From: a virus
Lineage: Duplodnaviria > Heunggongvirae > Uroviricota > Caudoviricetes
Virus record (IMG/VR): IMGVR_UViG_2698536369_000020
Reading direction: 5' to 3' (one strand)
Length of the DNA stretch: 17,285 nucleotides
In this document: piece by piece, positions 2,688-17,079 of the stretch
Layout of the letters: the number at the start of each line of letters is the position of its first letter
Numbering within the stretch: position 1 is the stretch's first letter
Program-made: the position numbers and the translations under genes
The notes under the pieces: generated by a model
What the model saw: only the letters and a program-made list of their open reading frames with translations
Databases searched by the model: none
Told to the model about the DNA's origin: nothing

Positions 2688-3428
2688 CTAATCATTTCCC
2701 TTACGAATATATGGGCCAAAAGCCCAAGAATCATAATAAGGGTGATGGACTAGTTTTTCATTAAATCGAACACTATAAGTTAATTTTTTTATATTTTTAC
2801 GTACAGCATTAATACTGGGCAAAGAGGAAAGATAATCTATAAACTTATCGATAGTGATTTCCCCTTCGCAACACTCAAACCCATCAATGATATTTTTCGC
2901 CATTTTTCCATTTTCATTTTTTTGATATATCACTCCAGGTATTCGTTGAAAAAAACTAGATAATGCATATTTGTCCGCTACATATGTATCATCCACATGA
3001 TATTTCCCACCGAGCATAGTTGTAGTAACAATAAGCTTATACACACCTTTGGGTTGCCATGTTGATGGTAGTTCGAATTCTTTAATGATCACATCAAGAT
3101 GATTAAGATAATGTTCAGAAATTCGATTTATTTGTTGAAAATAAGAACGCATAAATTTATTATTATGATCATGTATTAATGAGCTATCTCCAACGATGTT
3201 ACACACTTGCTGATAGTACTTACCATAATATATTGGTTGACCATTTGATTTTAGTTCTGTAAAAATCAAACAATCATCCAGGAGAATCACGCAATCGCAC
3301 TGATAATTAGCATAAACATCAATTGGAGGAGCTTTAATCCCCGCATCACGAACTTGTTTTATAAATTGTTGCTCATGAAATCGCCCTTTACTTGCTTGAG
3401 AAATTTTTTTGGAACCAAATAATGACAT
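2688..3428 (-). CDS. Hypothetical protein with NERD / PD-(D/E)xK-like nuclease signature, 246 aa (distal gene of two-gene operon)
   Basis: N-terminal region GRFHEQQ...VYANYQCDCVILLDDCLIFTELKSNGQPIYYG fits the NERD-type layout (G..xE, then acidic residue, hydrophobic strand, E-x-K). Its ATG overlaps the stop of the upstream gene (TAATG at 3426-3430), indicating translational coupling. Strongly AT-rich. Confidence 0.55.
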   Translation of the reverse strand: MSLFGSKKISQASKGRFHEQQFIKQVRDAGIKAPPIDVYANYQCDCVILLDDCLIFTELKSNGQPIYYGKYYQQVCNIVGDSSLIHDHNNKFMRSYFQQINRISEHYLNHLDVIIKEFELPSTWQPKGVYKLIVTTTMLGGKYHVDDTYVADKYALSSFFQRIPGVIYQKNENGKMAKNIIDGFECCEGEITIDKFIDYLSSLPSINAVRKNIKKLTYSVRFNEKLVHHPYYDSWAFGPYIRKGND

Positions 3429-4726
3429 TAGACTGAGCTATTTGCTATTAATGCAGGCATTAAGCATAAACCGTCCATACAGGGAATAAATGGGCAATCA
3501 TTAAGATCATGTGATTTTGAATTGAAGGTAAAATAATCTATCAGTTTTTTTGCTGCATCTGCTGCAATCCCCTTACGTTGAAAGAATGATAACCAACTCT
3601 CACGGCTTTTTATGATCAGCCAGCGATCCAACTGTAGGGGTATAGGTTTTGTCGATGAAAATCTTTTGCTCATTTCTTCTTTAGATAACTCGACTAAACA
3701 TTGATAAGCGTGCACCCAATTAAATAATGATATATTCCCATATTCTTCATGAAGGTCATCAGGAGACATATTTTCCAACTCGCTTAGATGAAATGAGCTA
3801 AAAACGCCATCAGAATTTAAGTAAGATGGCATATGATCCTTTACCCAACTATTTAGATGAAAATGTTTGTTACTAAATTCATGAACTTCGCTATATAGAT
3901 GTGACGCTCTCATCATTAGTCTATTTCTTGCAATCTCATAATCTCGGTATAAACAAAAACTATCAACCTCAAGAGAGTAAATGTTATTATCCAATTTTGT
4001 AAATACTGCACTACTTAGTCTGAAAAAGTCTCTTACTCTGCTTAATGAGTCAAAAACATTCCACTCATTAAGGTACCCTCCCATTGAAAGCAAGGTTTGT
4101 TTATTCACACAAGAAGTTAGTTTCAATGGCCCATGAGTCCGTAAATAAGAAAATATTCTTCCGGTGTAATTGGCTACCTCATCAAATGCCCTATCGATAA
4201 CTCGAAAATATTCGATATCAGGTTCAGCATGAATATTAATATTTTCAGAAACGATAAATAATGGAAAAATCCTCTTCATTTTTTTAGGATCATTGACCAC
4301 AACCAAGGATGATAATGATGATAAAAACATCTCACAAAACATGATGAGATTAAGTATTAATGCATGTGATTTTTTTGTGTTTTTACGCCAAATACCAGCA
4401 CATTTTGTAGCCGCAAAAAAAGAATTATTGATATCATGCATAATTTTACATTGACTCTCGAACTCAGAGATTAGTTCAATGTTATCAGGAAATGAGTTTA
4501 CTAGCTCATTAATACATTTTTTGAATGTATTGTTATACTCAACTTCAGTCTGAACTGAAAATCTATTATAATAGATGGAAGATATTCTCAGCACATCCAA
4601 GGCGATATCTATACTAATATCATCTCTTTTTATGTACTCACAAAAAAAAGAACAAAACTGTTTCGGGTCGTTAGCAAGATTACTGATTCTAGTGGTATCA
4701 TAAACTTTTTCCATTTTTCCATACAT
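3428..4726 (-). CDS. Hypothetical protein, 432 aa, no recognisable family (proximal gene of two-gene operon)
   Basis: Long uninterrupted ORF in strongly AT-rich DNA; no Walker A, HNH, PD-(D/E)xK or other motif that I can recognise; one ~23-residue hydrophobic stretch (HALILNLIMFCEMFLSSLSSLVVV). A second in-frame ATG four codons downstream has the AGGA box at a more plausible spacing (~11 nt). Confidence 0.55.
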   Translation of the reverse strand: MYGKMEKVYDTTRISNLANDPKQFCSFFCEYIKRDDISIDIALDVLRISSIYYNRFSVQTEVEYNNTFKKCINELVNSFPDNIELISEFESQCKIMHDINNSFFAATKCAGIWRKNTKKSHALILNLIMFCEMFLSSLSSLVVVNDPKKMKRIFPLFIVSENINIHAEPDIEYFRVIDRAFDEVANYTGRIFSYLRTHGPLKLTSCVNKQTLLSMGGYLNEWNVFDSLSRVRDFFRLSSAVFTKLDNNIYSLEVDSFCLYRDYEIARNRLMMRASHLYSEVHEFSNKHFHLNSWVKDHMPSYLNSDGVFSSFHLSELENMSPDDLHEEYGNISLFNWVHAYQCLVELSKEEMSKRFSSTKPIPLQLDRWLIIKSRESWLSFFQRKGIAADAAKKLIDYFTFNSKSHDLNDCPFIPCMDGLCLMPALIANSSV

Positions 4727-5403: not shown

Positions 5404-5422
5404 TGGTGCGAAGGCCGGACTC
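5404..5422. repeat. attR: 19-bp direct repeat of the leuX 3' end (P4-type att core)
   Basis: TGGTGCGAAGGCCGGACTC at 5404-5422 versus TGGTGCCGAAGGCCGGACTC at 17080-17099 inside the tRNA 3' end (one C missing). The two copies bracket the whole P4-like gene set. Confidence 0.7.
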
Positions 5423-5476
5423 AAATATCAAAATAAGTCAATGATAAAAAACAAATAATAAAAAACAAAAATGAAA

Positions 5477-5497
5477 TATGCCCCCTTTTGTGCCCCC
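5477..5497. repeat. Two TGCCCCC motifs near attR, candidate integrase arm-type binding sites
   Basis: ATATGCCCCC ttttg TGCCCCCA; the same heptamer recurs three times next to attL/int start (16918-16964). Confidence 0.3.
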
Positions 5498-5567
5498 ATT
5501 GTTTTTCTGACCAATCTATTTTCAACCCATCAACAAATCGGAAAGTTAACTAATTTTTAATCAGTGA

Positions 5568-5594
5568 GTTTGGATCCGTAGCTCGGATCCAAAC
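5568..5594. other. Perfect hairpin: 11-bp stem, 5-nt loop
   Basis: GTTTGGATCCG tagct CGGATCCAAAC; located between attR and the crr-like repeats; no adjacent U-run typical of an intrinsic terminator. Confidence 0.4.
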
Positions 5595-5620
5595 CAGTGC
5601 ATCTTTTACCCACATAAAAA

Positions 5621-5915
5621 ATTTTTTTTCGGAAGAACTGTTCACACTGTTCACCCTTTGATTTTCTCCTTTTATTTCAGAGTAATAGATGGTGAATAAT
5701 GGGTGAAGGGTGAACATTCGATTCTTCACCTCCGGCATTCTGCCGATGTGACTTGTGCAGGGGATTAATCCTCCGCACTGAAATCACACAGGGAGAAAAA
5801 AGTTTTTTTTGATTTGATTGTTCACACTGTTCACCTTTCGTTTTTCTCTTTTAATTTCAGTGTGATAACGGGTGAATATACGGTGAAGGGTGAACAGTGG
5901 ATTGTTCACCTGCGG
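5621..5915. repeat. crr-like region: two ~120-bp direct repeats, each carrying TGTTCACC-type iterons
   Basis: Unit 1 ~5621-5745 and unit 2 ~5797-5915 both read A6-T8, TGTTCACACTGTTCACC, ~50 nt, GGTGAAnnnnGGTGAAGGGTGAACA, TTCACC. Lies immediately downstream of the alpha gene. Matches my recollection that P4 crr is two 120-bp direct repeats with type-I iterons bound by alpha protein. Confidence 0.6.
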
Positions 5916-5969
5916 GGAATTCAGGGATAAAAAAAGACCGGCAGATGCCGGTCAGGTGGGTCATGAGGG

Positions 5970-8303
5970 TCAGGTTGTTGCAGGGTCGTCACATTTTGGC
6001 AGCCAGTCGCCGTAGCTTTCCTCTTTCAGCGTCAGGTTGGTCTGTATCCCCTGTTTGGTATGGCGCTTCTCGTAATTCAGTCCGTATTCCTTCAGCATCA
6101 CCGGCAGCCCCAGCCCGAACATTTTCAGACTGAGTACATTCCGGTAGCCGTTTGCCTCCATGTAGGCCAGATAGGCGTGATAGAGGTATTTACGGTAATT
6201 ACGCGGGATGATACTGGCGTTCCCCATATACATGCCGCTGGTCTGCGGCAGGGTTTCCAGATAGCCGATAAAATCAAACGTCGGGTCGGCATCCCGTTTG
6301 ATGTTCAGTGCCTCGTCTGAGTTCTGCTGGGACTGAAGCAGTGACCGGGCGAGCATCGGGTCGCTGAACTTCTGCATCAGGTGACGCACGATGACCGCCA
6401 GCTCGCGGGTGATTTTGTCCTTAAGCTGCGGGTCGCGCTCCTGCGGGGCTATCTGTTCCGGGAAGTGAATAATCACCCGCCGGCGTGACACGCCGCCGCT
6501 GCGGTCGGTGAAGCGCATCGGGTTATTGTTGACGGCCAGAATCACCGCCGGGATATGCGTGGAGTACGCATCCCGGTATTTCGGGTCAACGGACACCGCA
6601 TCGCCGCCGGTGATGGCCTTGAGTCCGGCTCCGTCGCCGCTCCATTTTTCCTGGTCCGGCAGGCGTATCAGTGAGAAGCCAGTTAACGCGGCACGTTCAC
6701 GCGGGGATTCCAGCGTCTCGATGGTGGCCGACGTGGCGTTATCCTCCCCGGCCAGCAGGGTGGCTATTTCGGCCATGATACTTTTGCCGCTGCCGCCGGG
6801 ACCGGTCACCTCCAGAAAGAGCTGCCAGTCGTAGCGGTTTGCCAGCACCATAAACAGTGCGGCCAGAATCACGTCGCGTTTTTCCGCACGACCACCGGCG
6901 GCACGGTCAAGCCAGCGCCAGAACGCGGGAGCGTGGGTTTCCAGCATTTCCCCTTCCACCGGCGGGGTGAAATCCACATCGCACAGGGTGCGCATCCAGT
7001 GTGACGGACTGTGCGGGTGGAACGAGCCGTTCTGCGTGTCGAGCACGCCGTTACGAAAGCCAATCAGGCGGCGGGAGGGGGCTTCCTGCTGCGGAATAAT
7101 CAGCTTCAGGGTGTCCACCACGGAGGCCACCTTCCCGGAGGAGAACGGCGCGCGCAGCCGCTGAAACAGCCCGGCCACATCCCGGGCAAAGTCCTGTGGT
7201 GGCAGCACCTTCCAGACACCATTTTCATAACGGGACAGAAGCTGGCCGTTGGCATCGACCGCGAGCGCCTCGCCGTAATGCTCATAGATACGCATGGCCT
7301 TTTCGCTGGTACTCATGGCGGAAAACTCCGCTTCACTCATGGTGTCGAACGGGCTTTCAGCCGGTGGCCGGATGGCATCGTAAATGGCCTTACGGGTGGC
7401 CTCCCCGCCGTACTGCGTGAAGGCATCATTCCAGTCACCGAAGACCGGTGGCAGGGCAACAACACCTTCACACGCATCTGCGGCTGCGGCGGCTTTTTTC
7501 TGGCCGTCACCGCTGAGGTCACGGTCAGCAGCAAGGACAATCTGACAGGCCGGATGCTTCTGCCGGGCAAGGCTGGCCAGAGAAAGGAGGTTCACGGAAG
7601 AAAGCGCCACCATCACCGTTTCACCGGTCAGGTGATGTACGGTAAGTGCGGTCGCGTATCCCTCCGCTATCCACAGACGTTTTCCGGCCTGATTCTGTCC
7701 TTCAAGGGTGTGACAGGTGCCCCTGACCTGTCCGCCTTTCAGGGTGCGCTTACGGCCGTCAGCACTGATTAACTGAAGGTTAACCAGTTCGCCGCTGTCG
7801 TCATACAGTGGCACCACAAGGTCACCGGCGCGCCAGCTCACGCCACCGGCTCTGTGTGTGCCGGTCAGCATCCGGCATTCCCGGCCGGGAAAGCCCTTGC
7901 GGGTCAGGTAGGCGTTACCGGTTCCGGGACGGGTTTTTGCCATCAGGGTTTGTGCCAGTGCGGCGGCGTTCTTCCGGGCGGCTTCTGTTTCAGCACCGGC
8001 GGCGGCCGTCACTGTCGGGTCAGCCGGGGGCAGGCTGCCGGTCACGGCAGCCACCTTTGCGGCCGCGTCGGACGGAGAGACACCAAACACCTTTTCAACC
8101 AGTTTCAGGCCGTCACCGGCACCACACTGATTGCAGTACCAGGTGCCGCGCCCCTCCCTGTCATCAAAACGGAAGCGGTCACTCCCGCCACAGACCGGAC
8201 AGGGCTGATGACGGTTTTTCAGCACCTGAATCCCCAGCGCCGGGAGAATACGCGGCCAGTGGCCGAGCGCATGGCTGACGGTGGCGGTTACGTTCATTTT
8301 CAT
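5970..8303 (-). CDS. P4 alpha-like primase-helicase, 777 aa
   Basis: N-terminal zinc-binding primase motif CPVCGGSDRFRFDD...GTWYCNQCGAGDG, central TOPRIM-like region, C-terminal Walker A GPGGSGKS; length equals that recalled for P4 alpha. Confidence 0.85.
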   Translation of the reverse strand: MKMNVTATVSHALGHWPRILPALGIQVLKNRHQPCPVCGGSDRFRFDDREGRGTWYCNQCGAGDGLKLVEKVFGVSPSDAAAKVAAVTGSLPPADPTVTAAAGAETEAARKNAAALAQTLMAKTRPGTGNAYLTRKGFPGRECRMLTGTHRAGGVSWRAGDLVVPLYDDSGELVNLQLISADGRKRTLKGGQVRGTCHTLEGQNQAGKRLWIAEGYATALTVHHLTGETVMVALSSVNLLSLASLARQKHPACQIVLAADRDLSGDGQKKAAAAADACEGVVALPPVFGDWNDAFTQYGGEATRKAIYDAIRPPAESPFDTMSEAEFSAMSTSEKAMRIYEHYGEALAVDANGQLLSRYENGVWKVLPPQDFARDVAGLFQRLRAPFSSGKVASVVDTLKLIIPQQEAPSRRLIGFRNGVLDTQNGSFHPHSPSHWMRTLCDVDFTPPVEGEMLETHAPAFWRWLDRAAGGRAEKRDVILAALFMVLANRYDWQLFLEVTGPGGSGKSIMAEIATLLAGEDNATSATIETLESPRERAALTGFSLIRLPDQEKWSGDGAGLKAITGGDAVSVDPKYRDAYSTHIPAVILAVNNNPMRFTDRSGGVSRRRVIIHFPEQIAPQERDPQLKDKITRELAVIVRHLMQKFSDPMLARSLLQSQQNSDEALNIKRDADPTFDFIGYLETLPQTSGMYMGNASIIPRNYRKYLYHAYLAYMEANGYRNVLSLKMFGLGLPVMLKEYGLNYEKRHTKQGIQTNLTLKEESYGDWLPKCDDPATT

Positions 8304-8317
8304 GGTGTTGTTCTCCT

Positions 8318-8638
8318 TCAGTGCAGTACCGGCGCTTTTATGTGACGGGCACAGAGTTCATCCATCACAACCAGCCCGAGAAAGGACAGCGACGGCGCGG
8401 CCTTCAGGGGGCCGGATTCCATTAAATCTTCCAGCAGGGCACAGGCTATCTGACGCCCTTTTTCCTCACCGTGCTGGCGCAGATAAAAGCCCTCCAGCTC
8501 AGCGGCGATGGCCGCCTCCAGTGATTCAAGGGTGAGATGCGGGTAGCGGTGCTGACGTTCGCACACGGTCAGCCAGGCACAGGCGACAGCGCGACGGTAA
8601 AGGGCAGCGCGTAAGACGGGCGGTAAGGGTGTTTTCAT
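8318..8638 (-). CDS. P4 orf106-like small protein, 106 aa
   Basis: ORF directly upstream of alpha in the same operon orientation; size and position match the small ORF between orf151 and alpha in P4-like elements. Function unknown. Confidence 0.45.
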
Positions 8639-8773
8639 TTGTTTTCCTCCCTGTGACAGATGACTGCATTCCGTGCCGGTTGTATTAACTGATAAGGCAT
8701 ATCTGCGTCTCCTGAAGACGTGCGTATCCCTGCGCGAATACGCACATTTAATTTTTCGGGTGTCGTTTTTTAA

Positions 8774-9229
8774 TTACAGATAATTGCGGTAACTGTTATC
8801 CGGGGTGATTTCCGGGTCAGGCTCCGTGCGGGGAATTTCCCGCCATTCCCGCGCCACCGGTGCCGCCCGGCTGGCCGGAACAGTGTCCTGCGGGTAAATA
8901 TCCAGATATTTCTCCCGCCATTTCTGTAATTCCGGGTCTCCGGCCATTTCTTTCAGTACCGCATGCCGGTTTACGGGGCTGCGTTTAAACAGGTCAGGAC
9001 GGTCACAGGTAAATTCCCGCAGAAAACGCCCCAGCGGGATGTCTGTGGTGCGCCCGTCTGCGAGGATACGCACAAGGATACTGAATTTACGGCGGTACGG
9101 GTTCCAGACAATGTCCGGGCAGCGGTACGGCATTTCCCACGGAATACCGTCTTCCAGAATGCCGACCACGGCCACATCGGGAAAACCGGCAGAACGGTAA
9201 ATCTCACCGGGCTGGGGAAAATCAAACAT
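8774..9229 (-). CDS. P4 orf151-like protein, 151 aa
   Basis: Size and position in the leftward operon match P4 orf151; start overlaps the upstream eps-like stop by a few nt. Confidence 0.45.
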   Translation of the reverse strand: MFDFPQPGEIYRSAGFPDVAVVGILEDGIPWEMPYRCPDIVWNPYRRKFSILVRILADGRTTDIPLGRFLREFTCDRPDLFKRSPVNRHAVLKEMAGDPELQKWREKYLDIYPQDTVPASRAAPVAREWREIPRTEPDPEITPDNSYRNYL

Positions 9230-9509
9230 GCGTCTTGTCTCCCCGGTCTTTCTGCTGGGCGAGAAAATCGCGGCACAGGCCTTTGGCTTTCAGCTCATTC
9301 AGCACAAAATCAATATCTTCATTCAGGTAGCTGAAAATATGCGGAATGTAGAGCTGATGCAGGCCGGAGAGTTCACGGTGAATCAAATCACCCCCAACAA
9401 ACTGGGATACGGCGCTGGCGCGGTTGAGCTTATGGTAAGCCTCAATGCTGAGGTGTTCACGGGCGTCATGACGCGCTGAGACGGTCTGAGGGGCTTTTTT
9501 ATTACGCAC
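9222..9509 (-). CDS. eps-like small protein (~95 aa from a GTG start)
   Basis: GTG at 9509-9507 preceded by GGAGG at ~6 nt; begins [20 protein letters not shown]...; the GTG overlaps the stop of the upstream kil-like ORF. The ORF track's 177-aa version runs through the upstream gene and has no ribosome-binding site. Confidence 0.4.
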
Positions 9510-9699
9510 GGGACACCTCCACCACCGGCAGACGGGCAGCAAGGGAGAGCACATAGTCACGGACAAGGGAACGGCGGGCGCTGCGTTCATCACCGGCGAC
9601 GGTGCGAAGCATGCAGATACGGGGATGACGGTCTGCGCGACGGACAGCCGCAAACACAAAGACAAATTCAGGGTGTGAGGGGGTAAGGGTTGTAGCCAT
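9502..9699 (-). CDS. kil-like small protein, 65 aa (first gene after the immunity region)
   Basis: ATG at 9699-9697 with AAGGAGG ~8 nt upstream; [16 protein letters not shown]...; position right after the CI/seq elements matches P4 kil. Assignment is by synteny only. Confidence 0.4.
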
Positions 9700-9710
9700 G
9701 ATGGCAGCCT

Positions 9711-9752
9711 CCTTGAAGTAACAGTTACAGCTACCACTGGAGTTCCTACGCT
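9711..9752 (-). promoter_or_regulatory. seqC-like target element of the P4-type RNA immunity system
   Basis: CCTTGAAGTAAC ... GTTCCTACGC; same two boxes recur at 9933-9958; the candidate CI region between them contains the complementary GTAGGAA; this copy abuts the kil ribosome-binding site. Confidence 0.4.
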
Positions 9753-9754
9753 CA

Positions 9755-9845
9755 TGGGTGGTAGCCCGGACGGGGGTAGGAATACCGGCCTTCAAGGAAA
9801 CCGGCCAGCCCGAAGGCTGCCCCGCCCGGACCACCATTATCTGAC
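9755..9845 (-). ncRNA. CI-RNA-like structured immunity RNA (boundaries approximate)
   Basis: GC-rich segment with terminal complementarity (GGTGGTAGCCCGG ... CCGGACCACC) and an internal GGTAGGAATACC box complementary to the flanking seq elements; lies between the two seq copies, as P4 cI lies between seqA and seqC. Confidence 0.35.
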
Positions 9846-9932
9846 AGAGGCTACGGTTTAAAAACCACAGCCAGAAAAACAGGTGTGCCGAAGCAACGAC
9901 GTAAAAAAAGACGCATGGCGCGTCATATGTCG

Positions 9933-9958
9933 CCTTGAAGTAACTCGGGTTCCTACGC
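9933..9958 (-). promoter_or_regulatory. seqA-like target element (upstream copy)
   Basis: CCTTGAAGTAAC tcgg GTTCCTACGC, direct repeat of the element at 9711-9752. Confidence 0.4.
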
Positions 9959-10052
9959 CCGGCTGCCGATTTTGCGGCAGCGGAAAAACTATATCCGCAA
10001 ATGCCGGAAAAAGGCAAGCCAGAAAAAGGGAGTTTTTGCAGAACAGGCATCA

Positions 10053-10319
10053 TCATGCGTCGTACCCCCGTTTGCGTCCGGCAATGCGTCCGGCCATCCA
10101 TGCGGTGACTTCAGAGTGCAGCCAGGCCACATTTTTACCGCCAAGACTCACCTGCGGCGGAAATTCCCCCTTACGGATGAGTTCATAGATGGTCGAGCGT
10201 GACAGGCCGCACAGGTGCATCACTTCCGGCAGACGTAAAAAACGCTCCTGCGTGATGTCCGGCAGCGGCATCAGTGGCGTAACAGGGGCGGGAGACGGGG
10301 AAGAAAAAACAGCTTGCAT
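10053..10319 (-). CDS. Vis / AlpA-family phage regulatory DNA-binding protein, 88 aa
   Basis: HTH region [51 protein letters not shown] is characteristic of AlpA/Vis; 88 aa, transcribed divergently from sid, as P4 vis (orf88) is. Confidence 0.7.
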
Positions 10320-10596
10320 CGGGCTACCTCGTTAATGTCCATACAGCACCGGATAAGTCCGTCCGGCTTCGGGTAGCGCTTTATTTTGTGAATATTTTCA
10401 GCAGACGCAACAGGGGGAATTTGTTCCGGCAACCTTACAATGGCTGTGTGTTTTTTATCCATCTGGACTGGAAGGGTCTCAAAGGGTTCTGAAGGAACTG
10501 TAATTTTTTATAGTGAAATGCAAATTGTTTTTCCTTATTTATTTCAGTGAATTAATAAAAATAAACAGTAATAAACAGCATAAAAAGCCCATCAAC

Positions 10597-10704
10597 GGGT
10601 GAACAGTGGTGAACAGACGGTGAACAGTCATTACTGCGATTGTTCACCCTTTAACTTACTGTATTACTTATCTTTTTTCTTATGGTGAACAGAGGTGAAC
10701 AGTA
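10597..10704. repeat. ori-like cluster of six TGTTCACC-type iterons
   Basis: GGTGAACAG t GGTGAACAG ac GGTGAACAG (three direct copies at ~11-bp spacing), one inverted copy (TGTTCACCC at ~10641), then GGTGAACAG a GGTGAACAG; between vis and sid. Confidence 0.6.
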
Positions 10705-10870
10705 AAATATAAAAAAACAAACAGTAAGCCGGTTTTTCCTGCGACCTTTTCCTGGCTTGCCGGTCTGAGGATGAGTCTCCTGTGTCAGGGCTGGCACATC
10801 TGCAATGCGTCGTGTTGTTGTCCGGTGTACGTCACAATTTTCTCAACCTGAAGTGACGAGGAGCCGGAAA

Positions 10871-11605
10871 ATGTCTGACAACACCATCCCTGAATATCTG
10901 CAACCCGCGCTGGCACAACTGGAAAAGGCCAGAGCCGCCCATCTTGAGAACGCCCGCCTGATGGATGAGACCGTCACGGCCATTGAACGGGCAGAGCAGG
11001 AAAAAAATGCGCTGACGCAGGCCGACGGAAACGATGCTGACGACTGGCGCACGGCCTTTCGTGCAGCCGGTGGTGTCCTGAGCGACGAGCTGAAACAGCG
11101 CCACATTGAGCGCGTGGCACGCCGGGAGCTGGTACAGGAATATGACAATCTGGCCGTGGTGCTGAATTTTGAACGCGAACGCCTGAAAGGGGCGTGTGAC
11201 AGCACGGCCACCGCCTACCGGAAGGCACATCATCACCTTCTGAGTCTGTATGCAGAGCATGAGCTGGAACACGCCCTGAATGAAACGTGTGAGGCGCTTG
11301 TCCGGGCAATGCATCTGAGCATTCTGGTACAGGAAAATCCGCTCGCCAACACCACCGGGCATCAGGGCTACGTCGCACCCGATAAAGCTGTCATGCAGCA
11401 GGTGAAATCATCGCTGGAACAGAAAATAAAACAGATGCAAATCAGCCTCACCGGCGAGCCGGTTCTCCGGCTGACCGGACTGTCAGCGGCAACACTCCCG
11501 CACATGGATTATGAGGTGGCAGGCACACCGGCACAGCGCAAGGTGTGGCAGGACAAAATAGACCAGCAGGGAGCAGTGCTTAAGGCCAGAGGACTGCTGT
11601 CATGA
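10871..11605 (+). CDS. sid: Sid-like external capsid-size scaffold protein, 244 aa
   Basis: ATG at 10871 preceded by GAGGAG; 244 aa from this start equals the recalled length of P4 Sid; first gene of a sid-delta-psu-sized triplet; coiled-coil-like composition. The ORF track's 266-aa version starts 22 codons upstream without a ribosome-binding site. Confidence 0.6.
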   Translation: MSDNTIPEYLQPALAQLEKARAAHLENARLMDETVTAIERAEQEKNALTQADGNDADDWRTAFRAAGGVLSDELKQRHIERVARRELVQEYDNLAVVLNFERERLKGACDSTATAYRKAHHHLLSLYAEHELEHALNETCEALVRAMHLSILVQENPLANTTGHQGYVAPDKAVMQQVKSSLEQKIKQMQISLTGEPVLRLTGLSAATLPHMDYEVAGTPAQRKVWQDKIDQQGAVLKARGLLS

Positions 11606-12102
11606 TTTACTGCCCGTCGTGTGGACATGTTGCTCACACCCGTCGCGCACATTTCATGGACGATGGCACCAAGATAATGATTGCACAGTGCCGGAATATT
11701 TATTGCTCTGCGACATTTGAAGCGAGTGAAAGCTTTTTCTCTGACTGTAAAGATTCAGGAATGGAATACATTTCAGGCAAACAGAGATACCGCGATTCAC
11801 TGACTTCTGCCTCCGGCAGTATGAAACGCCCGAAAAGAATGCTTGTTACCGGATATTGTTGTCGGAGATGTAAAGGCCTTGCACTGTCAAGAACATCGCG
11901 GCGTCTGTCTCAGGAAGTCACCGAGCGTTTTTATGTGTGCACGGATCCGGGCTGTGGTCTGGTGTTTAAAACGCTTCAGACCATCAACCGCTTCATTGTC
12001 CGCCCGGTCACGCCGGACGAACTGGCAGAAAGCCTGCATGAAAAACAGGAACTGCCGCCAGTACGGTTAAAAACACAATCATATTCGCTGCGTCTGGAAT
12101 GA
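11602..12102 (+). CDS. Delta-like late transcription activator (tandem Ogr-type zinc fingers), 166 aa
   Basis: N-terminal half CPSCGHVAHTRR...CRNIYCSATFEASES mirrors the P2 Ogr zinc-finger signature (CP.C.H.AH.R...C.N..CSATF) and a second, degenerate copy follows (C..C...RTSR...C....C..VF); start overlaps the sid stop (ATGA). Confidence 0.75.
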   Translation: MIYCPSCGHVAHTRRAHFMDDGTKIMIAQCRNIYCSATFEASESFFSDCKDSGMEYISGKQRYRDSLTSASGSMKRPKRMLVTGYCCRRCKGLALSRTSRRLSQEVTERFYVCTDPGCGLVFKTLQTINRFIVRPVTPDELAESLHEKQELPPVRLKTQSYSLRLE

Positions 12103-12175
12103 GGGCTGCCGGTTAACCCCGGCCGTCGCCGCACACCGTATTTTTATTCTTCAGCATGATGAGAAAGAGATAACG

Positions 12176-12748
12176 ATGGAAAGCACAGCCTTACAGCAGG
12201 CCTTTGACACCTGTCAGAATAACAAAGCAGCATGGCTGCAACGCAAAAATGAGCTGGCTGCGGCCGAACAGGAATATCTGCGGCTTCTGTCCGGGGAAGG
12301 CAGAAACGTCAGTCGCCTGGACGAATTACGCAATATTATCGAAGTCAGAAAATGGCAGGTGAATCAGGCCGCCGGTCGTTATATTCGTTCGCATGAAGCC
12401 GTTCAGCACATCAGCATCCGCGACCGGCTGAATGATTTTATGCAGCAGCACGGCACAGCACTGGCGGCGGCACTGGCACCGGAGCTGATGGGATACAGTG
12501 AGCTGACGGCCATTGCCCGAAACTGTGCCATACAGCGTGCCACAGATGCCCTGCGTGAAGCCCTTCTGTCCTGGCTTGCGAAGGGGGAAAAAATTAATTA
12601 TTCCGCACAGGATAGCGACATTTTAACGACCATCGGATTCAGGCCTGACGCGGCTTCGGTGGATGACAGCCGTGAAAAATTCACCCCTGCGCAGAACATG
12701 ATTTTTTCGCGTAAAAGTGCGCAACTGGCATCACATCAGTCTGTGTAA
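12176..12748 (+). CDS. psu: Psu-like polarity-suppression / capsid-decoration protein, 190 aa
   Basis: 190-aa ORF immediately after delta, followed by a terminator and cos site; size and position match P4 Psu. Confidence 0.6.
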   Translation: MESTALQQAFDTCQNNKAAWLQRKNELAAAEQEYLRLLSGEGRNVSRLDELRNIIEVRKWQVNQAAGRYIRSHEAVQHISIRDRLNDFMQQHGTALAAALAPELMGYSELTAIARNCAIQRATDALREALLSWLAKGEKINYSAQDSDILTTIGFRPDAASVDDSREKFTPAQNMIFSRKSAQLASHQSV

Positions 12749-12784
12749 AACTCCCCGAAAATCCGTCCGATTTTACTGAAAAAA

Positions 12785-12822
12785 GCCATGCATCGATAAG
12801 GTGCATGGCTTTGCATGCGTTT
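12785..12822 (+). terminator. Putative intrinsic terminator of the sid-delta-psu operon
   Basis: Hairpin GCCATGCA tcgataagg TGCATGGC followed by TTTGCATGCGTTTT, ~37 nt after the psu stop. Confidence 0.4.
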
Positions 12823-12912
12823 TCCTGCCTCATTTTCTGCAGACCGCGCCATTCCCGGCGCGGCCTGAGCGTGTCAGTGCAACTGCATTAAAACCGCCCT
12901 GCAAAGCGGGCG

Positions 12913-12931
12913 GGCGAGGCGGGGAAAGCAC
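12913..12931. other. cos site (P2/P4-type 19-nt cohesive end sequence)
   Basis: GGCGAGGCGGGGAAAGCAC matches the cohesive-end sequence I recall for P2/P4; located between psu and the hotspot, as in P4. Confidence 0.55.
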
Positions 12932-13010
12932 TGCGCGCCAGTATCTATTAATTTACATTCATAGAATCCTTGCAAAGCAGATTCTGCTAAGATCCCTGAA
13001 ACTTGAGTTG

Positions 13011-13028
13011 AGGATTAGTGTTAATCCT
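13011..13028. promoter_or_regulatory. Palindrome upstream of the methyltransferase gene, candidate operator
   Basis: AGGATTA gtgt TAATCCT (7-bp arms), ~35 bp upstream of the methyltransferase start; a weaker GCAGA t TCTGC palindrome lies at 12977-12987. Confidence 0.3.
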
Positions 13029-13064
13029 TTACAATATCCTAGTATTTGGCTGCTAAGTATGTAG

Positions 13065-14318
13065 GTGATTATTTTGTCTAGTAAAAAGTTTATTTCGCTA
13101 TTTAGTGGCGCAATGGGGTTAGACTTAGGTCTCGAAGAGGCTGGCTTTGAGCTCGTAGCTTGCGTTGAACAAGATAAGGCAGCTCTAAAAACAATTAAAA
13201 CTAATAAGCCAAATCTTGCTGTATTCGAAGGTAGTATTGTTGACTGCACTGGCTCTGAATTATTAGCACTAGCCGGAGTGAATGATAAAGAAGAAATAGA
13301 TTTAGTTGCTGGCGGTCCACCGTGCCAAGCATTTAGTGTTTTTGGAAATAGGTTAGGGCTAGAAGATGCCAGAGGGCAGCTTATTTTCGAATATGTTCGA
13401 ATGATTAAAGAATTAAACCCAAAAGTTTTCGTAATGGAAAACGTACGCGGTTTATTATCAATGTCTATAGTTCCAGCTTCTAAAAAGAAGGAGCTATCAG
13501 GCACAATCGCAGCATCTGCTTTCGAAAAAGGCTCTCTAATAAAAAGGGTAGCTAACGAATTCAATAAACTAGGTTATCATGTGGATTGCTTTGTAGTTAA
13601 TGCTGCCAACTATGGAGCCCCACAAATTAGGGAGCGTGTTATTTTAATTGGTAATCGCTTCGGAATGATAGCCAATTTCGCCTCCCCTTTATTCAGCAAT
13701 AGAGTAGAAGATAATCTTCCGCCATTCAAAACGCTGGGGGATGTAATTGGCCCAGAGAGCGGTTTTGTTGATAAATATCCAGAAGTCATGAATTTTTCGC
13801 CAAGAAAACTGAAATATCTTTCAATGGTTCCACCTGGCGGAAACTGGAGAAGCATGCCAGAAGAAATGCAAAAAGAATCTATGGGAAAAAGCTGGTATCT
13901 TAAAGGAGGAAGAAGTGCTTACTGGAGGAAACTATCTTTCCAGTTTCCTTCACCCACAGTAGTAACAATGCCAAATCATGCGGGAACAAGTATGTGCCAC
14001 CCAACTGAACTTAGAGCTATTTCTGTTGGTGAAGCTGCCGCGATACAAGAGTTTCCTGATTACTGGAAATTTGAAGGTACAACTACAGAAAAATTCAGAC
14101 AGATAGGTAACGCAGTTCCTGTCCGGTTAGGTAAAGTTGCAGGGGAAGCTGCTATGGAACTTCTTCATCGTATACAAGAAAATAAGGTTGCTGATTTAGT
14201 AACTCCAGATTATATAGAAACCCATATTAGACCGCATATTAGAACCAGATCTTTCTTTAAAAATGGTCAAGCATATAGTGGAGATGTTTCTTACTACGAC
14301 CTTGAAGAAGAAGTTTAG
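13065..14318 (+). CDS. DNA (cytosine-5)-methyltransferase, type II modification enzyme
   Basis: Canonical C5-MTase motifs in order: motif I LFSGAMGLDLG, motif IV GGPPCQAFS, motif VI ENVRGL, motif X QIGNAVPV, with a variable target-recognition region between. Low-GC. Exact start (GTG 13065 or a nearby codon) is uncertain. Confidence 0.85.
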   Translation: MIILSSKKFISLFSGAMGLDLGLEEAGFELVACVEQDKAALKTIKTNKPNLAVFEGSIVDCTGSELLALAGVNDKEEIDLVAGGPPCQAFSVFGNRLGLEDARGQLIFEYVRMIKELNPKVFVMENVRGLLSMSIVPASKKKELSGTIAASAFEKGSLIKRVANEFNKLGYHVDCFVVNAANYGAPQIRERVILIGNRFGMIANFASPLFSNRVEDNLPPFKTLGDVIGPESGFVDKYPEVMNFSPRKLKYLSMVPPGGNWRSMPEEMQKESMGKSWYLKGGRSAYWRKLSFQFPSPTVVTMPNHAGTSMCHPTELRAISVGEAAAIQEFPDYWKFEGTTTEKFRQIGNAVPVRLGKVAGEAAMELLHRIQENKVADLVTPDYIETHIRPHIRTRSFFKNGQAYSGDVSYYDLEEEV

Positions 14319-14328
14319 AATTAGTCAT

Positions 14329-14357
14329 AAAAAAAACTGGCCCTTAGGCCAGTTTTT
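14329..14357. terminator. Bidirectional intrinsic terminator between the convergent methyltransferase and endonuclease genes
   Basis: AAAAAAACTGGCC ctta GGCCAGTTTTTT: GC stem flanked by an A-run on one side and a T-run on the other, so it can terminate both converging transcripts. Confidence 0.6.
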
Positions 14358-15175
14358 TATTCATTAATCATTTCAAGTAATTTGTGCCATTGAGCTGTGC
14401 CATCAGCATTTAGAACTTGCTCATTGTACTTCTTTGCAACATGTTCTTTGAATTTTTCAATAAGATCTTTATTTTTTTCTTTTATATCTGCTTCTTTTAC
14501 AGCACGTTCTATACCTTCAAGTACCCAATGCTGGGTTTCAGCCTCACCATTGTTAAGCCATGACCAAAATTCTTTACCAGCATATACATGCACTTTGTCA
14601 CGAATATCAATCACATTGTGGTTTGCACCAGTATTGATACCTCGTAAGATTCTATACTTATCAGTTAATCCATGGCTATTTCCATAAAAAACCCCAACCA
14701 CTATATTGTCAGCCACTCCAGGATAATTATTTATGATTTCGTGAAATGCTTTATTTAGTTGGACAGCCATCGTCAATTGAATAGTCCATTTCCCTGCCTT
14801 AAGAGATAAAAGCTCAATTCTACCATCATCCCTTTGTATTACATGATCTATTTCATCAAAGCAAGGGTGTATAAAAGGCTCGTTGGCAGCTCTATAACTT
14901 TTATCTAATTTATATGCACCAAACACTCTAGGAAGTATTTTTTCATCAATCAATTTTCCAAAGCCAGTATCATGCCCAGTCATTAAATGCTTAGCAATTA
15001 TTGCTTCAACTAGTTCATCAAAATCATTAAGGGAATGATAATCAAAAATAAAAGGGGTCATAAACGGATTTATGGACATTGTTTCTGACATTAACTTTGT
15101 TAGTTTACTTTGTCTCTCCAAAATCCACCACGCAGCACACTCCTGCACTTTAAGTATAACTTCTTGCTTATTCAT
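14357..15175 (-). CDS. Putative type II restriction endonuclease, 272 aa
   Basis: Assigned by context: convergent with a C5-MTase, and its start overlaps the stop of an upstream controller-protein gene (classic C-R-M layout). I do not recognise the family from sequence alone. Confidence 0.6.
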   Translation of the reverse strand: MNKQEVILKVQECAAWWILERQSKLTKLMSETMSINPFMTPFIFDYHSLNDFDELVEAIIAKHLMTGHDTGFGKLIDEKILPRVFGAYKLDKSYRAANEPFIHPCFDEIDHVIQRDDGRIELLSLKAGKWTIQLTMAVQLNKAFHEIINNYPGVADNIVVGVFYGNSHGLTDKYRILRGINTGANHNVIDIRDKVHVYAGKEFWSWLNNGEAETQHWVLEGIERAVKEADIKEKNKDLIEKFKEHVAKKYNEQVLNADGTAQWHKLLEMINE

Positions 15176-15473
15176 GACTTATAAATCCATCTGATAAATT
15201 TTTTAATAAAATTAACCGCTGTTTTTTGTCTAGTTTATTAATCAACAAAATAATTTCTGCCAAGTCATCTTCGGGTGTGTAAAAATATGAGACAGGGACA
15301 TTTAATAAATCAGCGATTTTTTTAGTAAGTGAAAAATCGGGCATATGTTTACCTTTCTCATATTGATTCATGCGAGCACTGGCAGAGCATTCATCAATGC
15401 CAACAAGTATTCCCAACTGTTCTTGAGTTAACCCAGCATTCAATCGGGCTTTTTTTAACCTAATTGGAAGCAT
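15168..15473 (-). CDS. Controller (C) protein, XRE-family helix-turn-helix regulator, ~101 aa
   Basis: HTH motif LTQEQLGILVGIDECSASARMNQYEKGKHMPDFSLTKKIADLLNVPVSYFY; start placed at the internal ATG (15473-15471), which has an AGAGGA Shine-Dalgarno ~8 nt upstream; the ORF track's upstream start at 15551 would put the operator palindrome inside the coding region. Confidence 0.65.
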   Translation of the reverse strand: MLPIRLKKARLNAGLTQEQLGILVGIDECSASARMNQYEKGKHMPDFSLTKKIADLLNVPVSYFYTPEDDLAEIILLINKLDKKQRLILLKNLSDGFISHE

Positions 15474-15522
15474 CGAAAATCCTCTTTTTGGAGGTAGGTT
15501 TGCACTTTTTACACTCGAAATT

Positions 15523-15539
15523 ACTAAGGAATACTTAGT
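15523..15539. promoter_or_regulatory. Candidate C-box operator palindrome
   Basis: ACTAAG gaata CTTAGT, ~50 bp upstream of the preferred C-protein start. Confidence 0.35.
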
Positions 15540-15640
15540 TTTTAAAAGCAATGGAATAATTGCCTAAGAAGTTGTTAAGTGAAGGTTAAAAAGACACAAG
15601 CATTGCTGTTGATGAAGGCTAGTTCAAACTAAGCGGAGAC

Positions 15641-16927
15641 TTAATCAAGGCTATTTTTATTAAGTTTATTTGCAAATTCAAAAGCAGAGATATGCTTCTC
15701 TCTGTTGGAATAAAGATAATCTGCCCACCATTGGACCATTAGTCTGCGCTCATCTAAATGCTCAGACGTATGAATATACGCAGCTCGCACATTATTACGT
15801 TCCGAATGGCTCAATTGGCGTTCAATAGCATCATCACTCCATAATCCTGACTCTCCTAACGCACCACGTGCCATTGTCCTAAAACCATGTCCGCAAACTT
15901 CTGTTTTCGTATCATAGCCCATCGCACGCAATGCATTATTAACAGTGTTCTCACTCATAACCTTAGTTGCGTCATGATCCCCAGGGAAAAGCAGCGTCTT
16001 ATCACCACTAATCTGCTTTAACTGCTCCAACAACCCTATCGCTTGCCTACTAAGTGGAACGAGATGCTCTTCCTTCATCTTCATTCCTCTATATGAGTAA
16101 CGTACGCCTTTAATTTCCTCGCGTTTTGCAGGTATACGCCATAGAGATTTATCGAAGTCGAATTCATCCCAGCGAGCGAAACGTAGCTCACTGGAACGAA
16201 CAAATGTTAATAAAGAAAGTTCAACCGCAATTTTCGTCATCATACGACCACGATATGCAGCAAGACGTGCTAAGAACTCAGGAAAACGATGTGATGGTAG
16301 AGCTGGATAGTGCCGCGTTTTAGCTGTCGATAACGCACCAGCCATATCACTTGCAGGATTTGAATCTATATAATCGTTCTGTACGGCATAGCGCATAATA
16401 GCAGTAACACGTTGCTGAAGACGCTGCGCCACATCATGCTTACCACTGGCATCAACTTTTTTTATCGGTGCTAAAAGATGGCTAGTTTTAAGCTGTCGGA
16501 TATCAGACAAGCCAATATAAGGAAAGATATACAGCTCTAGATAGCGAAGAACACGCGCCCGATGATCCTCACTCCAACGTTTGTTGCTGGCGTGCCATTC
16601 ACGAGCAATAGTTTCAAAATTATAAGCACCAGCATTCTCTGCTTGAGCCTCTTTCTGTACTGCTTTTGGATCTATACCTTGCGCCAGCAACTTTTTCGCT
16701 TCATCCCTCCTCTTTCTAGCTTCAGCAAGCGTCACGGTCGGCCAAACACCAAAAGCGAGGCGATCCTCTTTTTTGTCAGAGGGGCGTCGGTATTTCATGC
16801 GCCAGTATTTAGACCCCTTGGCCGAAACCTCGAGATACAAACCGCCGCCATCGGCCATTTTGTAGCTTTTGTCTTTTGGCTTTGCTGTCTCGACTTGTCT
16901 AGCATTGAGCTTCATTTGGGGGCACAT
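15641..16927 (-). CDS. int: P4-type tyrosine integrase (site-specific recombinase)
   Basis: N-terminal KLNARQVETAKPKDKSYKMADGGGLYLEV, typical of P4-family integrases; C-terminal catalytic region with H..R (CGHGFRTMARGAL) and ...RAAYIHTSEH; lies next to the tRNA att site. Start ambiguous (ATG 16927 or ATG 16915, neither with a strong Shine-Dalgarno). Confidence 0.85.
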   Translation of the reverse strand: MCPQMKLNARQVETAKPKDKSYKMADGGGLYLEVSAKGSKYWRMKYRRPSDKKEDRLAFGVWPTVTLAEARKRRDEAKKLLAQGIDPKAVQKEAQAENAGAYNFETIAREWHASNKRWSEDHRARVLRYLELYIFPYIGLSDIRQLKTSHLLAPIKKVDASGKHDVAQRLQQRVTAIMRYAVQNDYIDSNPASDMAGALSTAKTRHYPALPSHRFPEFLARLAAYRGRMMTKIAVELSLLTFVRSSELRFARWDEFDFDKSLWRIPAKREEIKGVRYSYRGMKMKEEHLVPLSRQAIGLLEQLKQISGDKTLLFPGDHDATKVMSENTVNNALRAMGYDTKTEVCGHGFRTMARGALGESGLWSDDAIERQLSHSERNNVRAAYIHTSEHLDERRLMVQWWADYLYSNREKHISAFEFANKLNKNSLD

Positions 16928-16964
16928 TTCTAATCGAAGTTAAGATGCCCCCAATTATGCCCCC
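16918..16964. repeat. Three TGCCCCC heptamers (one inverted, two direct) between int start and attL, candidate Int arm-type sites
   Basis: GGGGGCA (16918-16924), ATGCCCCC (16945-16952), ATGCCCCC (16957-16964); same motif as near attR. Confidence 0.3.
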
Positions 16965-17079
16965 AATGACATCCGGATTTCAACGGACAACCTCGGACGA
17001 TCCAGGATCGTAGAAATCGCTGAAAGTATTGATTTTTAATGGATAATCGGACTTACTCGGATGGACTTGGAAGTAATAA

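Follow-up and report, generated by a model that had tools for sequence, protein, structure and literature searches.

Anatomy of a very probably intact P4-type small-RNA immunity switch, a further specificity allele, in an E. coli satellite prophage

The matching of an RNA to its targets is a known principle of immunity specificity in P1/P7, and also in P4 and phiR73. For P1 and P7, Citron and Schuster reportedly found in 1990 that the difference in specificity consists of matched changes in the RNA and its targets, and for P4 the terminators t1, t4 and timm as well as the eta escape are said to have been described by Briani et al. in 2000 and Forti et al. in 1999. The P4 CI RNA is processed from an untranslated transcript, terminates transcription by pairing with seqA and seqC (PMC4825925), and is a substrate of RNase P (PMC5499578). 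In addition, IsrK has been equated with seqA, and C4 with the CI RNA, by Barquist et al. 2013 (PMC3632133).

Here we present an analysis of positions 9700-9965 in a window of 17,285 nt, the window being the whole stretch of DNA that was analysed. It holds a P4-like satellite prophage of 11.7 kb (5404-17103), attached at tRNA-Leu (leuX) and adjoining ahr, and 9700-9965 is the left-operon leader of this satellite, with the operon on the minus strand. P4 aligns with the window in three blocks, 5404-9838 (97.2%), 9897-12912 (96.8%) and int at 15716-17103 (83.3%). All P4 core genes are present in the satellite at 96-97% identity (int at 83%), and the P4 gene set comprises vis, epsilon, orf151, cnr, alpha, sid, delta, psu and int. 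On the whole, the region is very probably an intact P4-type small-RNA immunity switch of an E. coli satellite prophage, encoded on the minus strand, whose RNA expression and function we infer. The mechanism is already known, and the module in the window is a further specificity allele of it. The first-pass annotation had proposed a P4-type RNA immunity region, and Rfam, P4 alignment, complementarity, covariation and satellite context all agree with that proposal. The genes and the promoter that frame the region are as follows.

10053..10319, minus strand: vis (orf88), AlpA-type regulator and excisionase, Pfam PF05930 Phage_AlpA (E = 7e-21), upstream of the PLE-like promoter
9988..10017, minus strand: PLE-like sigma-70 promoter, with -35 TTGCCT (10017-10012), 18-nt spacer and -10 TATAGT (9993-9988)
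9502..9699, minus strand: kil, 65-aa Icd-like cell-division inhibitor, NCBIfam NF033153 phage_ICD_like (76.1 bits vs 25)
9502..10101, minus strand: eta-like long ORF of 199 aa in the kil frame, which starts upstream of the PLE-like promoter, spans seqA, cI and seqC, and ends with kil

Alignment to P4, one of the checks suggested in the first-pass annotation, identifies the region as P4 PLE-seqA-cI-seqC-kil with flanks 98-99% identical. The vis product matches P4 ORF88, and identity to P4 is 98.2% from vis to the promoter and 99.0% over kil with its RBS. The PLE-like promoter is the sole promoter-like site in a scan of 9450-10450; its hexamers are the same as those of P4 in a nearly identical surrounding sequence, and the -10 hexamer is nearly invariant in 65 relatives. 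The first translated gene 3' of it is kil (ATG 9699-9697), whose product has no Pfam match at E <= 0.001, and by analogy with P4 this is the gene that would be under translational control of the RNA switch. As in P4 (PLE - seqA - cI - seqC - kil/eta), the module lies in the left operon, flanked by vis and kil, with the same promoter hexamers, leader hairpins, intrinsic terminator and CI fold, and with bipartite complementarity to an upstream and a downstream target, the downstream one over the kil Shine-Dalgarno; the eta frame across the whole region, the satellite gene set and the leuX attachment are also those of P4. The satellite differs from P4 in the a and b boxes, and in the spacer between terminator and cI. 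Between promoter and kil we identify the following leader and CI elements.

9904..9981, minus strand: leader RNA, IsrK-like, the P4 seqA region, Rfam RF01394 isrK (73.4 bits vs gathering 50, model positions 1-77 of 77)
9981-9962, minus strand: leader hairpin 1, 96.9% paired in relatives, double changes in 6/7 pairs
9961-9946, minus strand: leader hairpin 2 with the a1 box in its loop, 100% paired in relatives, double changes in 2/4 pairs
9994-9942, minus strand: c4-a1b1 match, Rfam RF03163 (49.6 bits vs gathering 46.7, a marginal pass)
9903..9924, minus strand: intrinsic terminator, GACGCGCCAUGCGUC then U7, between seqA and cI
9842..9902, minus strand: variable spacer from terminator to cI, 45 nt shorter than in P4 and 54% identical
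9754..9841, minus strand: CI RNA gene, C4 family, Rfam RF01695 (86.1 bits vs gathering 45, model positions 1-87 of 87, E = 3.9e-16)
9836-9820 with 9775-9759, minus strand: CI closing stem of 17 bp, 99.5% paired in 65 relatives

The Rfam search, likewise suggested beforehand, thus finds C4, isrK and c4-a1b1 all above their gathering scores. In P4, C4 and isrK matches lie at homologous positions, with 74.9 bits for its own CI against RF01695, and P4 itself falls below the c4-a1b1 threshold of RF03163. Within 9450-10450 the scan gives a single terminator-like site, the intrinsic terminator, which is 96.7% identical to P4; we take it to be the P4 terminator t1. Its stem is 89.9% paired in 65 relatives, with a first pair that alternates between GC and CG (30 vs 24 sequences), and its U-tract is nearly invariant. 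A further helix that encloses the leader terminator (GCGAC.../...GUCG) is 78.9% paired with modest covariation, and is a weak lead.

The leader is also that part of the region for which another role can be considered, namely that the IsrK-like RNA (9981-9904) acts in trans as an activator of the translation of the long read-through RNA, instead of or besides repression by CI. The model for it is IsrK (RF01394) of Salmonella Gifsy-1 with the downstream STnc1160, which our leader resembles in its full-length match to the isrK model, as well as in the layout, where a short leader RNA ends at a terminator and read-through yields a further small RNA by processing (PMC4825925). The long isrK-orf45-anrP transcript of Salmonella is translated upon activation by the short IsrK isoform (PMC4825925), and TraDIS screens of S. 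Typhi showed a requirement for the IsrK-like elements in P4-like prophages (PMC3632133); the conserved terminator in our leader would also suit such a role. However, the conserved covarying contacts of the leader are with CI (a1:a' and b1:b'), the gene downstream is the Icd-like kil and not orf45/anrP, the other downstream genes of Gifsy-1 also differing, and seqA is the CI target in the P4 literature (PMC4825925). The Hfq-binding, trans-activating role of isrK is described for Gifsy-1 only (PMC4825925). We hold a leader acting as translation activator to be unlikely, and read the leader as the upstream target of CI.

The first-pass annotation had seen complementary ends in a GC-rich segment flanked by repeated boxes, and these ends prove to be the 17-bp closing stem of CI. 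Folding, also among the suggested checks, gives -53.3 kcal/mol for the 88-nt CI segment (z = -5.0), and none of 200 shuffles is as stable. The layout consists of the closing stem, hairpin 1, hairpin 2 with b' in a 12-nt loop, and a single-stranded junction with a', and it is reproduced by both the minimum-free-energy and the centroid folds. In the ViennaRNA fold, hairpin 2 gains three pairs that reach into the b' loop, by which b' would be partly sequestered. Among the 65 relatives, both bases vary in four pairs of the closing stem, and just one base in 10; the two inner CI hairpins were set by the search pattern, and their pairing in relatives is uninformative.

The repeated boxes are confirmed as such in the window. 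CCTTGAAGTAAC has exactly two copies, at 9711-9722 and 9933-9944, with a chance expectation of ~0.01 matches and two or more copies in 0/200 shuffles; GTTCCTACGC also has exactly two copies (9742-9751 and 9949-9958), again against ~0.01 expected by chance. The GTAGGAA box within the GC-rich segment (plus strand, 9776-9782) is complementary to the flanking GTTCCTAC copies, as had been noticed (12 nt, 92%). The segment holds a second box, CTTCAAGG(A) at 9790-9798, whose complement is found in each of the CCTTGAAG copies (9 nt, 100%; 8 nt, 100%). On the minus-strand transcript, the upstream target seqA is 9958-9933 and the downstream target seqC is 9751-9710. The boxes, in the order of transcription, are given below.

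9950..9956, minus strand: a1 box GUAGGAA, upstream target, in seqA, complementary to a' over 7 nt
9933..9940, minus strand: b1 box CUUCAAGG, upstream target, in seqA, single-stranded, complementary to b' over 8 nt
9790..9798, minus strand: b' box (U)CCUUGAAG in the loop of CI hairpin 2, pairing with b1 (8 nt) and b2 (9 nt)
9776..9782, minus strand: a' box UUCCUAC in the single-stranded CI junction, pairing with a1 and a2 (7 nt each)
9730..9765, minus strand: alternative hairpin of the 3' strand of the CI closing stem, GCUACCAC (9765-9758), and GUGGUAGC (9737-9730), 8 nt, 100%
9743..9749, minus strand: a2 box GUAGGAA, downstream target, in seqC, complementary to a' over 7 nt
9718-9710, minus strand: b2 box CUUCAAGGA, overlapping the kil Shine-Dalgarno AAGGAGG (9714-9708)

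The overlap of b2 with the kil Shine-Dalgarno bears out the earlier remark that one copy adjoins the kil ribosome-binding site; that copy is the low-coordinate one (9711-9752), and it is downstream only in the sense of the transcript. In the anatomy drawn by the first-pass annotation the a box stands, while the minus strand, the b box, the terminator, the eta frame and the fact that the boxes are not those of P4 were left unmentioned. The duplex of the b' loop with seqC has a predicted energy of -14.8 kcal/mol.

Formal complementarity, the last of the checks suggested in advance, holds for both targets, and is kept by covariation in relatives. Over 65 distinct relatives, the a1:a' helix is 97.8% paired with double changes in 6/7 pairs, b1:b' is 96.1% paired (7/8 pairs), b':b2 is 89.0% paired (8/9 pairs), and a':a2 is 96.7% paired (6/7 pairs). 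The observed score or percentage paired is reached in none of 500 shuffles, and slid helices are only 32-46% paired. Among 107 distinct relatives, the cognate 7-nt pairing is found for a1 in all 107 and for a2 in 105, and the cognate medians are 8 nt for b1 and 9 nt for b2, against non-cognate medians of 4-5 nt. For the alternative hairpin, in whose loop a2 falls, pairing of the helix reaches 98.7% over the 65 relatives and 5/8 pairs show double changes; its P4 counterpart is compensated (GCUAUCGCC with GGCGAUAGC). This hairpin could be a structural switch coupling CI processing to termination.

These covarying pairs also bear on the reading of the region as purely protein-coding, in which it would be 'ash/cI' or the N-terminal part of an Icd-like eta protein, and the repeats would be coding features with no role as RNA. 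Indeed, old P4 records carry a 137-aa 'cI/ash' protein, and RefSeq has an 'ash family protein' pseudogene and 'Icd-like' CDSs of 182-196 aa with no ncRNA. Moreover, in 48 of 59 relatives the open kil frame extends 300 nt or more upstream; the median open length upstream of kil is 366 nt in this frame vs 93 and 27 nt in the other two. Nevertheless, selection on protein only is insufficient because base pairs covary with many double changes, in intramolecular as in intermolecular helices; three Rfam RNA families match above their gathering scores, and cI has been re-assigned to RNA in the P4 literature (PMC3632133, PMC4825925). Coding of eta and a role as RNA are compatible, and coding by itself leaves the data unexplained. 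As sole explanation the coding reading is thus ruled out by RNA covariation beside a real, conserved long ORF, and we consider it extremely improbable; an immunity RNA within a translatable eta frame is the reading that we keep.

In comparison with P4 (X51522), seqA is 72% identical, CI 77% and seqC 68%, against 98-99% for the flanks (promoter, vis and kil). The P4 boxes are GUGAGAA/UUCUCAC for a and UUCACAGG/CCUGUGAA for b, and those of the window are GUAGGAA/UUCCUAC for a and CUUCAAGG/CCUUGAAG for b. The boxes are changed at all three sites, each change in CI being mirrored in both targets. The predicted duplexes, loop-only and without an accessibility term, have -20.3 and -23.3 kcal/mol for the window CI with its own seqA and seqC, and, calculated in the same way, -6.9 and -12.3 kcal/mol with the P4 targets; P4 CI shows the reciprocal pattern of duplex energies. 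By neither box identity nor predicted cross-pairing with P4 does the satellite fall in the P4 specificity group. It is probably heteroimmune to P4 because the cross-duplexes are predicted to be weaker than the cognate ones, and probably has its own immunity specificity because its boxes depart from those of P4 in a matched way at all sites.

One may ask whether the module is an inert relic, that is, whether the island is domesticated or defective and the immunity RNA neither expressed nor needed. E. coli very commonly carries P4-like islands, with matches at ~2085 places in 1713 of 5426 complete genomes, and many of these islands are degraded, as in strain ESDR8, where epsilon is broken by an IS21 element. 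On the other hand, the promoter hexamers, both targets, the CI fold and the RBS, ATG and ORF of kil are all intact in our satellite, and the P4 core genes are all there. Besides, the exact allele occurs in 132 of the 5426 complete E. coli genomes (copies of at least 99% identity), at differing attachment sites, e.g. tRNA-Thr in strain 504237. The change against P4 is matched at three sites, and therefore the pairing has been under selection in the lineage. A relic is very unlikely in our judgement, and we continue with the module as an intact switch.

By analogy with P4, the switch would operate as follows. From the constitutive PLE-type promoter (10017-9988), transcription would start at ~9981, and the leader would bear seqA, with a1 in a hairpin loop and b1 single-stranded, next to the terminator (9924-9903). 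The read-through RNA would include CI (9841-9754), with a tRNA-like stem, b' exposed in a hairpin loop and a' in the junction, and CI would be cut out of the transcript, which in P4 takes RNase P and 3' trimming. Free CI would then bind, via a' and b', the a1/b1 and a2/b2 boxes of new transcripts. Pairing at a2/b2 would mask the kil Shine-Dalgarno, and the untranslated RNA would terminate early, by which epsilon, orf151, cnr and alpha would be off and the satellite would remain lysogenic. Pairing at a1/b1, beside the leader terminator, may give a feedback on CI synthesis. On transcripts from an upstream late promoter, the eta frame would be translated across the region, allowing escape from the block.

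Beyond P4, the c4 antisense RNA of phages P1 and P7 (icd-ant) is of the same type. It shares the RF01695 family and RF03163 (clan CL00128), its exposed a' and b' pair with upstream and downstream copies (a1/b1 and a2/b2), and the downstream copy lies over the RBS of an Icd-type gene. Unlike in our satellite, it is the icd-ant (antirepressor) operon that is controlled in P1, not replication genes, and the host element is a plasmid-prophage and no satellite. Outside the RNA the sequence identity is low; the P1-like phages D6 and JL22 have ~70% identity over 37% of the query. In N15/phiKO2 and lambdoid phages, a C4-like RNA before antirepressor (Rha/Ant) genes is distantly similar over seqA-CI, with 78% over 42% of the query for phiKO2 and ~70% over 36% for Stx and mEp460 phages; these differ from our element in the antirepressor context, in not being satellites and in not sharing the boxes. 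When a phage collection is searched with the region as query, at least 80% query coverage is reached by P4 records only.

Finally, we consider the variety of boxes over the family. In 125 loci of ~100 species, there are 10 variants of the a box and 32 of the b box in 58 combinations, each of which is matched at both target sites. The window allele has the a box of an O26-type allele, and its b box recurs in alleles with a different a box. One may tentatively picture the immunity RNA of the P4 family as carrying a combinatorial 'address code' of two boxes that reassort independently, a possibility rather than a likelihood. It looks as if the RNA module were swapped as a cassette into nearly identical P4 backbones, because the flanks are 98-99% identical to P4 vs 54-77% for the module. 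Identical immunity type is found in none of 25 co-resident pairs (same genome), a test without power as the background identity is just 2.3%. Partial cross-reaction between elements with one common box may occur, because some co-resident elements of other genomes have one of the two boxes in common. The scale of box diversity, together with the alternative hairpin, may be new to the literature.

Overall, our analysis brings no new mechanism; it finds a textbook RNA immunity switch that is intact by sequence in a satellite. It also points to an annotation gap, since the RefSeq copies examined show only an 'ash family protein' pseudogene or a long Icd-like CDS, and the RNA genes are missing. The box differences predict that the satellite and P4 would not repress each other, which bears on co-residence, on superinfection and on P4-derived vectors in carrier strains. 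The family survey, in turn, gives a set of matched RNA/target specificities, usable for the design of orthogonal antisense regulators.

On the whole, the locus belongs to the P4-type (C4-family) RNA immunity systems, as the first-pass annotation had proposed. Rfam places the C4 antisense RNA (RF01695) at 9841-9754 (-) with 86.1 bits against a gathering score of 45, isrK (RF01394) at 9981-9904 (-) with 73.4 bits (gathering score 50) and c4-a1b1 (RF03163) at 9994-9942 (-) with 49.6 bits (gathering score 46.7), and P4 itself has C4 and isrK matches at homologous places. What the P4 literature names seqA and CI RNA has its structural homologues in IsrK and C4 (Barquist et al. 2013, PMC3632133). 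In P4, the aligned stretch lies between vis (orf88) and kil; the module would work like P4 CI with seqA and seqC, and like P1/P7 c4 with a1b1 and a2b2. All testable defining features of the P4 type are present, except that the specificity is not identical with that of P4. Below, CI is the small immunity RNA with exposed segments a' and b' (seqB), seqA the upstream target with boxes a1 and b1, and seqC the downstream target with boxes a2 and b2.

Features of the immunity module in transcript sense
10101-9502 (-), 199-aa ORF in the kil frame, spanning promoter, seqA, terminator, CI and seqC
10017-10012 (-), promoter -35 TTGCCT (promoter scan)
9993-9988 (-), promoter -10 TATAGT (promoter scan)
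9981-9962 (-), leader hairpin 1
9961-9946 (-), leader hairpin 2, its loop holding a1 GUAGGAA (9956-9950)
9940-9933 (-), b1 CUUCAAGG, single-stranded
9924-9903 (-), intrinsic terminator with U7 (terminator scan)
9902-9842 (-), variable spacer (P4 alignment)
9841-9754 (-), CI RNA (Rfam match)
9797-9790 (-), b' CCUUGAAG, 12-nt loop of CI hairpin 2
9782-9776 (-), a' UUCCUAC, CI junction
9749-9743 (-), a2
9718-9710 (-), b2 CUUCAAGGA
9714-9708 (-), kil Shine-Dalgarno AAGGAGG
9699-9697 (-), kil ATG
9699-9502 (-), kil, 65 aa, Icd-like

The repeats reported at first pass recur exactly, CCTTGAAGTAAC at 9711-9722 and 9933-9944 and GTTCCTACGC at 9742-9751 and 9949-9958, both nowhere else in the window, with about 0.01 matches expected by chance for each and two copies of each in 0 of 200 shuffles. 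The GC-rich segment between them indeed contains the GTAGGAA box (9776-9782), complementary to the GTTCCTAC copies, and also a second box that had gone unmentioned, CTTCAAGG(A) at 9790-9798, which is complementary to each of the two CCTTGAAG copies. Its complementary ends form a 17-bp stem, and folding of the 88 nt gives -53.3 kcal/mol (z = -5.0).

Identity to P4 is a mosaic along the module and its flanks, with 98.2% from vis to the -10, 72% in seqA, 96.7% in the leader terminator, 54% in the spacer (9842-9902 (-), 45 nt shorter than that of P4), 77% in CI, 68% in seqC and 99.0% in the RBS plus kil. With a divergent spacer between flanks of 98-99% identity, the immunity module looks as though it had been exchanged in its entirety as a cassette. 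The alignment shows that box changes are matched between the CI RNA and both targets: the a box (target / CI) is GUGAGAA / UUCUCAC in P4 and GUAGGAA / UUCCUAC in the window, while the b box is UUCACAGG / CCUGUGAA in P4 and CUUCAAGG / CCUUGAAG in the window. In loop-only calculations, duplex energies of the window CI with seqA and seqC are -20.3 and -23.3 for its own targets, against -6.9 and -12.3 for those of P4; the P4 CI has -20.2 and -22.4 with its own targets, against -9.5 and -12.6 with those of the window. These energies predict heteroimmunity of the element to P4, and we rate the window module as a different specificity allele of P4-type immunity.

Of 5426 complete E. coli genomes, 132 carry the exact allele (311 nt at 99% identity or more); other E. 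coli alleles fall in classes at about 87%, about 78% and lower identity, and an identical copy of the module lies in a different satellite at tRNA-Thr. A scan for the conserved CI hairpin, with one genome per species, gives 120 loci, mostly in Enterobacterales and some in Aeromonas, Ralstonia, Cupriavidus and Aquitalea. P4-like immunity regions, some near-identical to P4, also occur in Vagococcus, Clostridiales and Bacillota-MAG assemblies (loci L043, L050, L069, L086, L087 and L126), where enterobacterial DNA has most likely been misbinned or entered as a contaminant. Across 125 loci, 10 a-variants and 32 b-variants are combined in 58 ways. Cognate pairing is essentially universal among the relatives: in 107 distinct regions parsed from the scan loci, the a box pairs over 7 nt with the upstream target in all 107 and with the downstream target in 105, and cognate b boxes have median pairings of 8 and 9 nt; for non-cognate pairings the medians are 4-5 nt. 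Covariation was measured in 65 distinct types picked for differing a' and b', which guarantees column variation there, not the matching target changes.

Covariation of the box helices in 65 types (cells paired; pairs with double changes)
a1:a', 97.8%; 6 of 7
b1:b', 96.1%; 7 of 8
b':b2, 89.0%; 8 of 9
a':a2, 96.7%; 6 of 7

Neither the covariation score nor the paired percentage of the real alignment is reached in any of 500 shuffles; slid controls are 32-46% paired. Satellite pairs in one genome sometimes share either b' or a' and have different versions of the other box (L031/L101 in Enterobacter chuandaensis, L046/L103 in Kosakonia arachidis, L079/L119 in Citrobacter amalonaticus). Because such co-resident satellites differ in one box only, their sequences suggest that a single-box difference may suffice for independent immunity.

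Besides these helices, 9737-9730 (-) offers a second complementary partner for the 3' strand of the CI stem (9765-9758), and the resulting hairpin, 9730-9765, displays a2 in its loop; across the 65 relatives it is 98.7% paired, and 5 of its 8 pairs carry double changes. As long as the transcript is unprocessed, this alternative hairpin may form at the expense of the CI fold, and it may be a folding or processing switch. A terminator-enclosing helix, 9897-9935 (-), can join a nearly invariant GGCGAC directly 3' of b1 and GUCG directly 3' of the U-tract, being 78.9% paired with modest covariation. In 48 of 59 relatives the kil frame stays open over 300 nt or more upstream, and the remaining two frames run for 93 and 27 nt before closing; we take the 199-aa ORF to be the counterpart of the P4 eta gene. 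Since this eta-like ORF overlaps them and its frame is kept open, coding also puts a constraint on the variable RNA boxes.

The best-supported reading of the window module is the published P4 model of CI processing, seqA/seqC pairing and premature termination (PMC4825925), CI being a substrate of RNase P (PMC5499578). Here CI would be processed out of the untranslated leader transcript and pair with seqA and seqC, and the pairing would cause premature termination and keep the replication genes silent. To this model the window anatomy adds that the kil ribosome-binding site, next to which the downstream repeat had been placed at first pass, is covered by b2. The leader terminator t1 of P4 reportedly requires CI and seqA and autoregulates CI, downstream termination is said to be permitted when kil is untranslated, and upstream PLL transcripts reportedly evade the block by translating eta. 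By analogy, t1 autoregulation of CI, termination without kil translation and PLL/eta escape would operate in the window element.

The entire 5404-17103 is a P4-like satellite, with 97.2% identity to P4 at 5404-9838, 96.8% at 9897-12912 and 83.3% in int (15716-17103), and with the 120-bp crr repeats of P4 at 5616-5735 and 5796-5915. It lies at tRNA-Leu (17164-17083, -), the classical P4 leuX site, and adjoins ahr in related genomes; its bounds, 5404-5423 and 17080-17103, repeat the 3' end of tRNA-Leu imperfectly (TGGTGC-GAAGGCCGGACTC vs TGGTGCCGAAGGCCGGACTC) and match the P4 attP core region. Between cos/psu and int, where P4 holds gop, beta and cII, 12912-15716 instead carries a type II restriction-modification pair (ORFs 13065-14318 (+) and 14357-15175 (-)), a C5 cytosine methylase (PF00145, E = 7e-65) and an EcoO109I-like endonuclease (PADLOC REase_II, 653.7 bits, full length). 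This cargo fits the known P4 defence hotspot, and related satellites have other cargo at the same site, e.g. a TIR-domain protein. Outside the satellite, in the flank 1-2065, one encoded product is like sialate O-acetylesterase (PF03629) and another is an HNH_2 protein, whose relative in strain ESDR8 (L129, 1574-2446) is named phosphorothioated-DNA-binding restriction endonuclease in RefSeq and adjoins Zorya zorE; the satellite therefore abuts a defence island. At 2688-4726 (-), two abutting ORFs of 246 and 432 aa, without Pfam, NCBIfam or PADLOC match, are one 678-aa hypothetical CDS in ESDR8; in the window, this gene may have been split or have a frameshift.

The CI and IsrK-like RNAs are absent from the annotation of the RefSeq copies examined (L003 7951-8499, L004-L007 and L129 12528-13118), in which PGAP gives no ncRNA over the immunity region; the sole entry there is a pseudogene ('ash family protein') or a long CDS ('Icd-like'). 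Among public E. coli genomes the exact sequence of the window allele is already a common one, and what might be new is only the family-wide combinatorial diversity of the boxes, together with the alternative hairpin.
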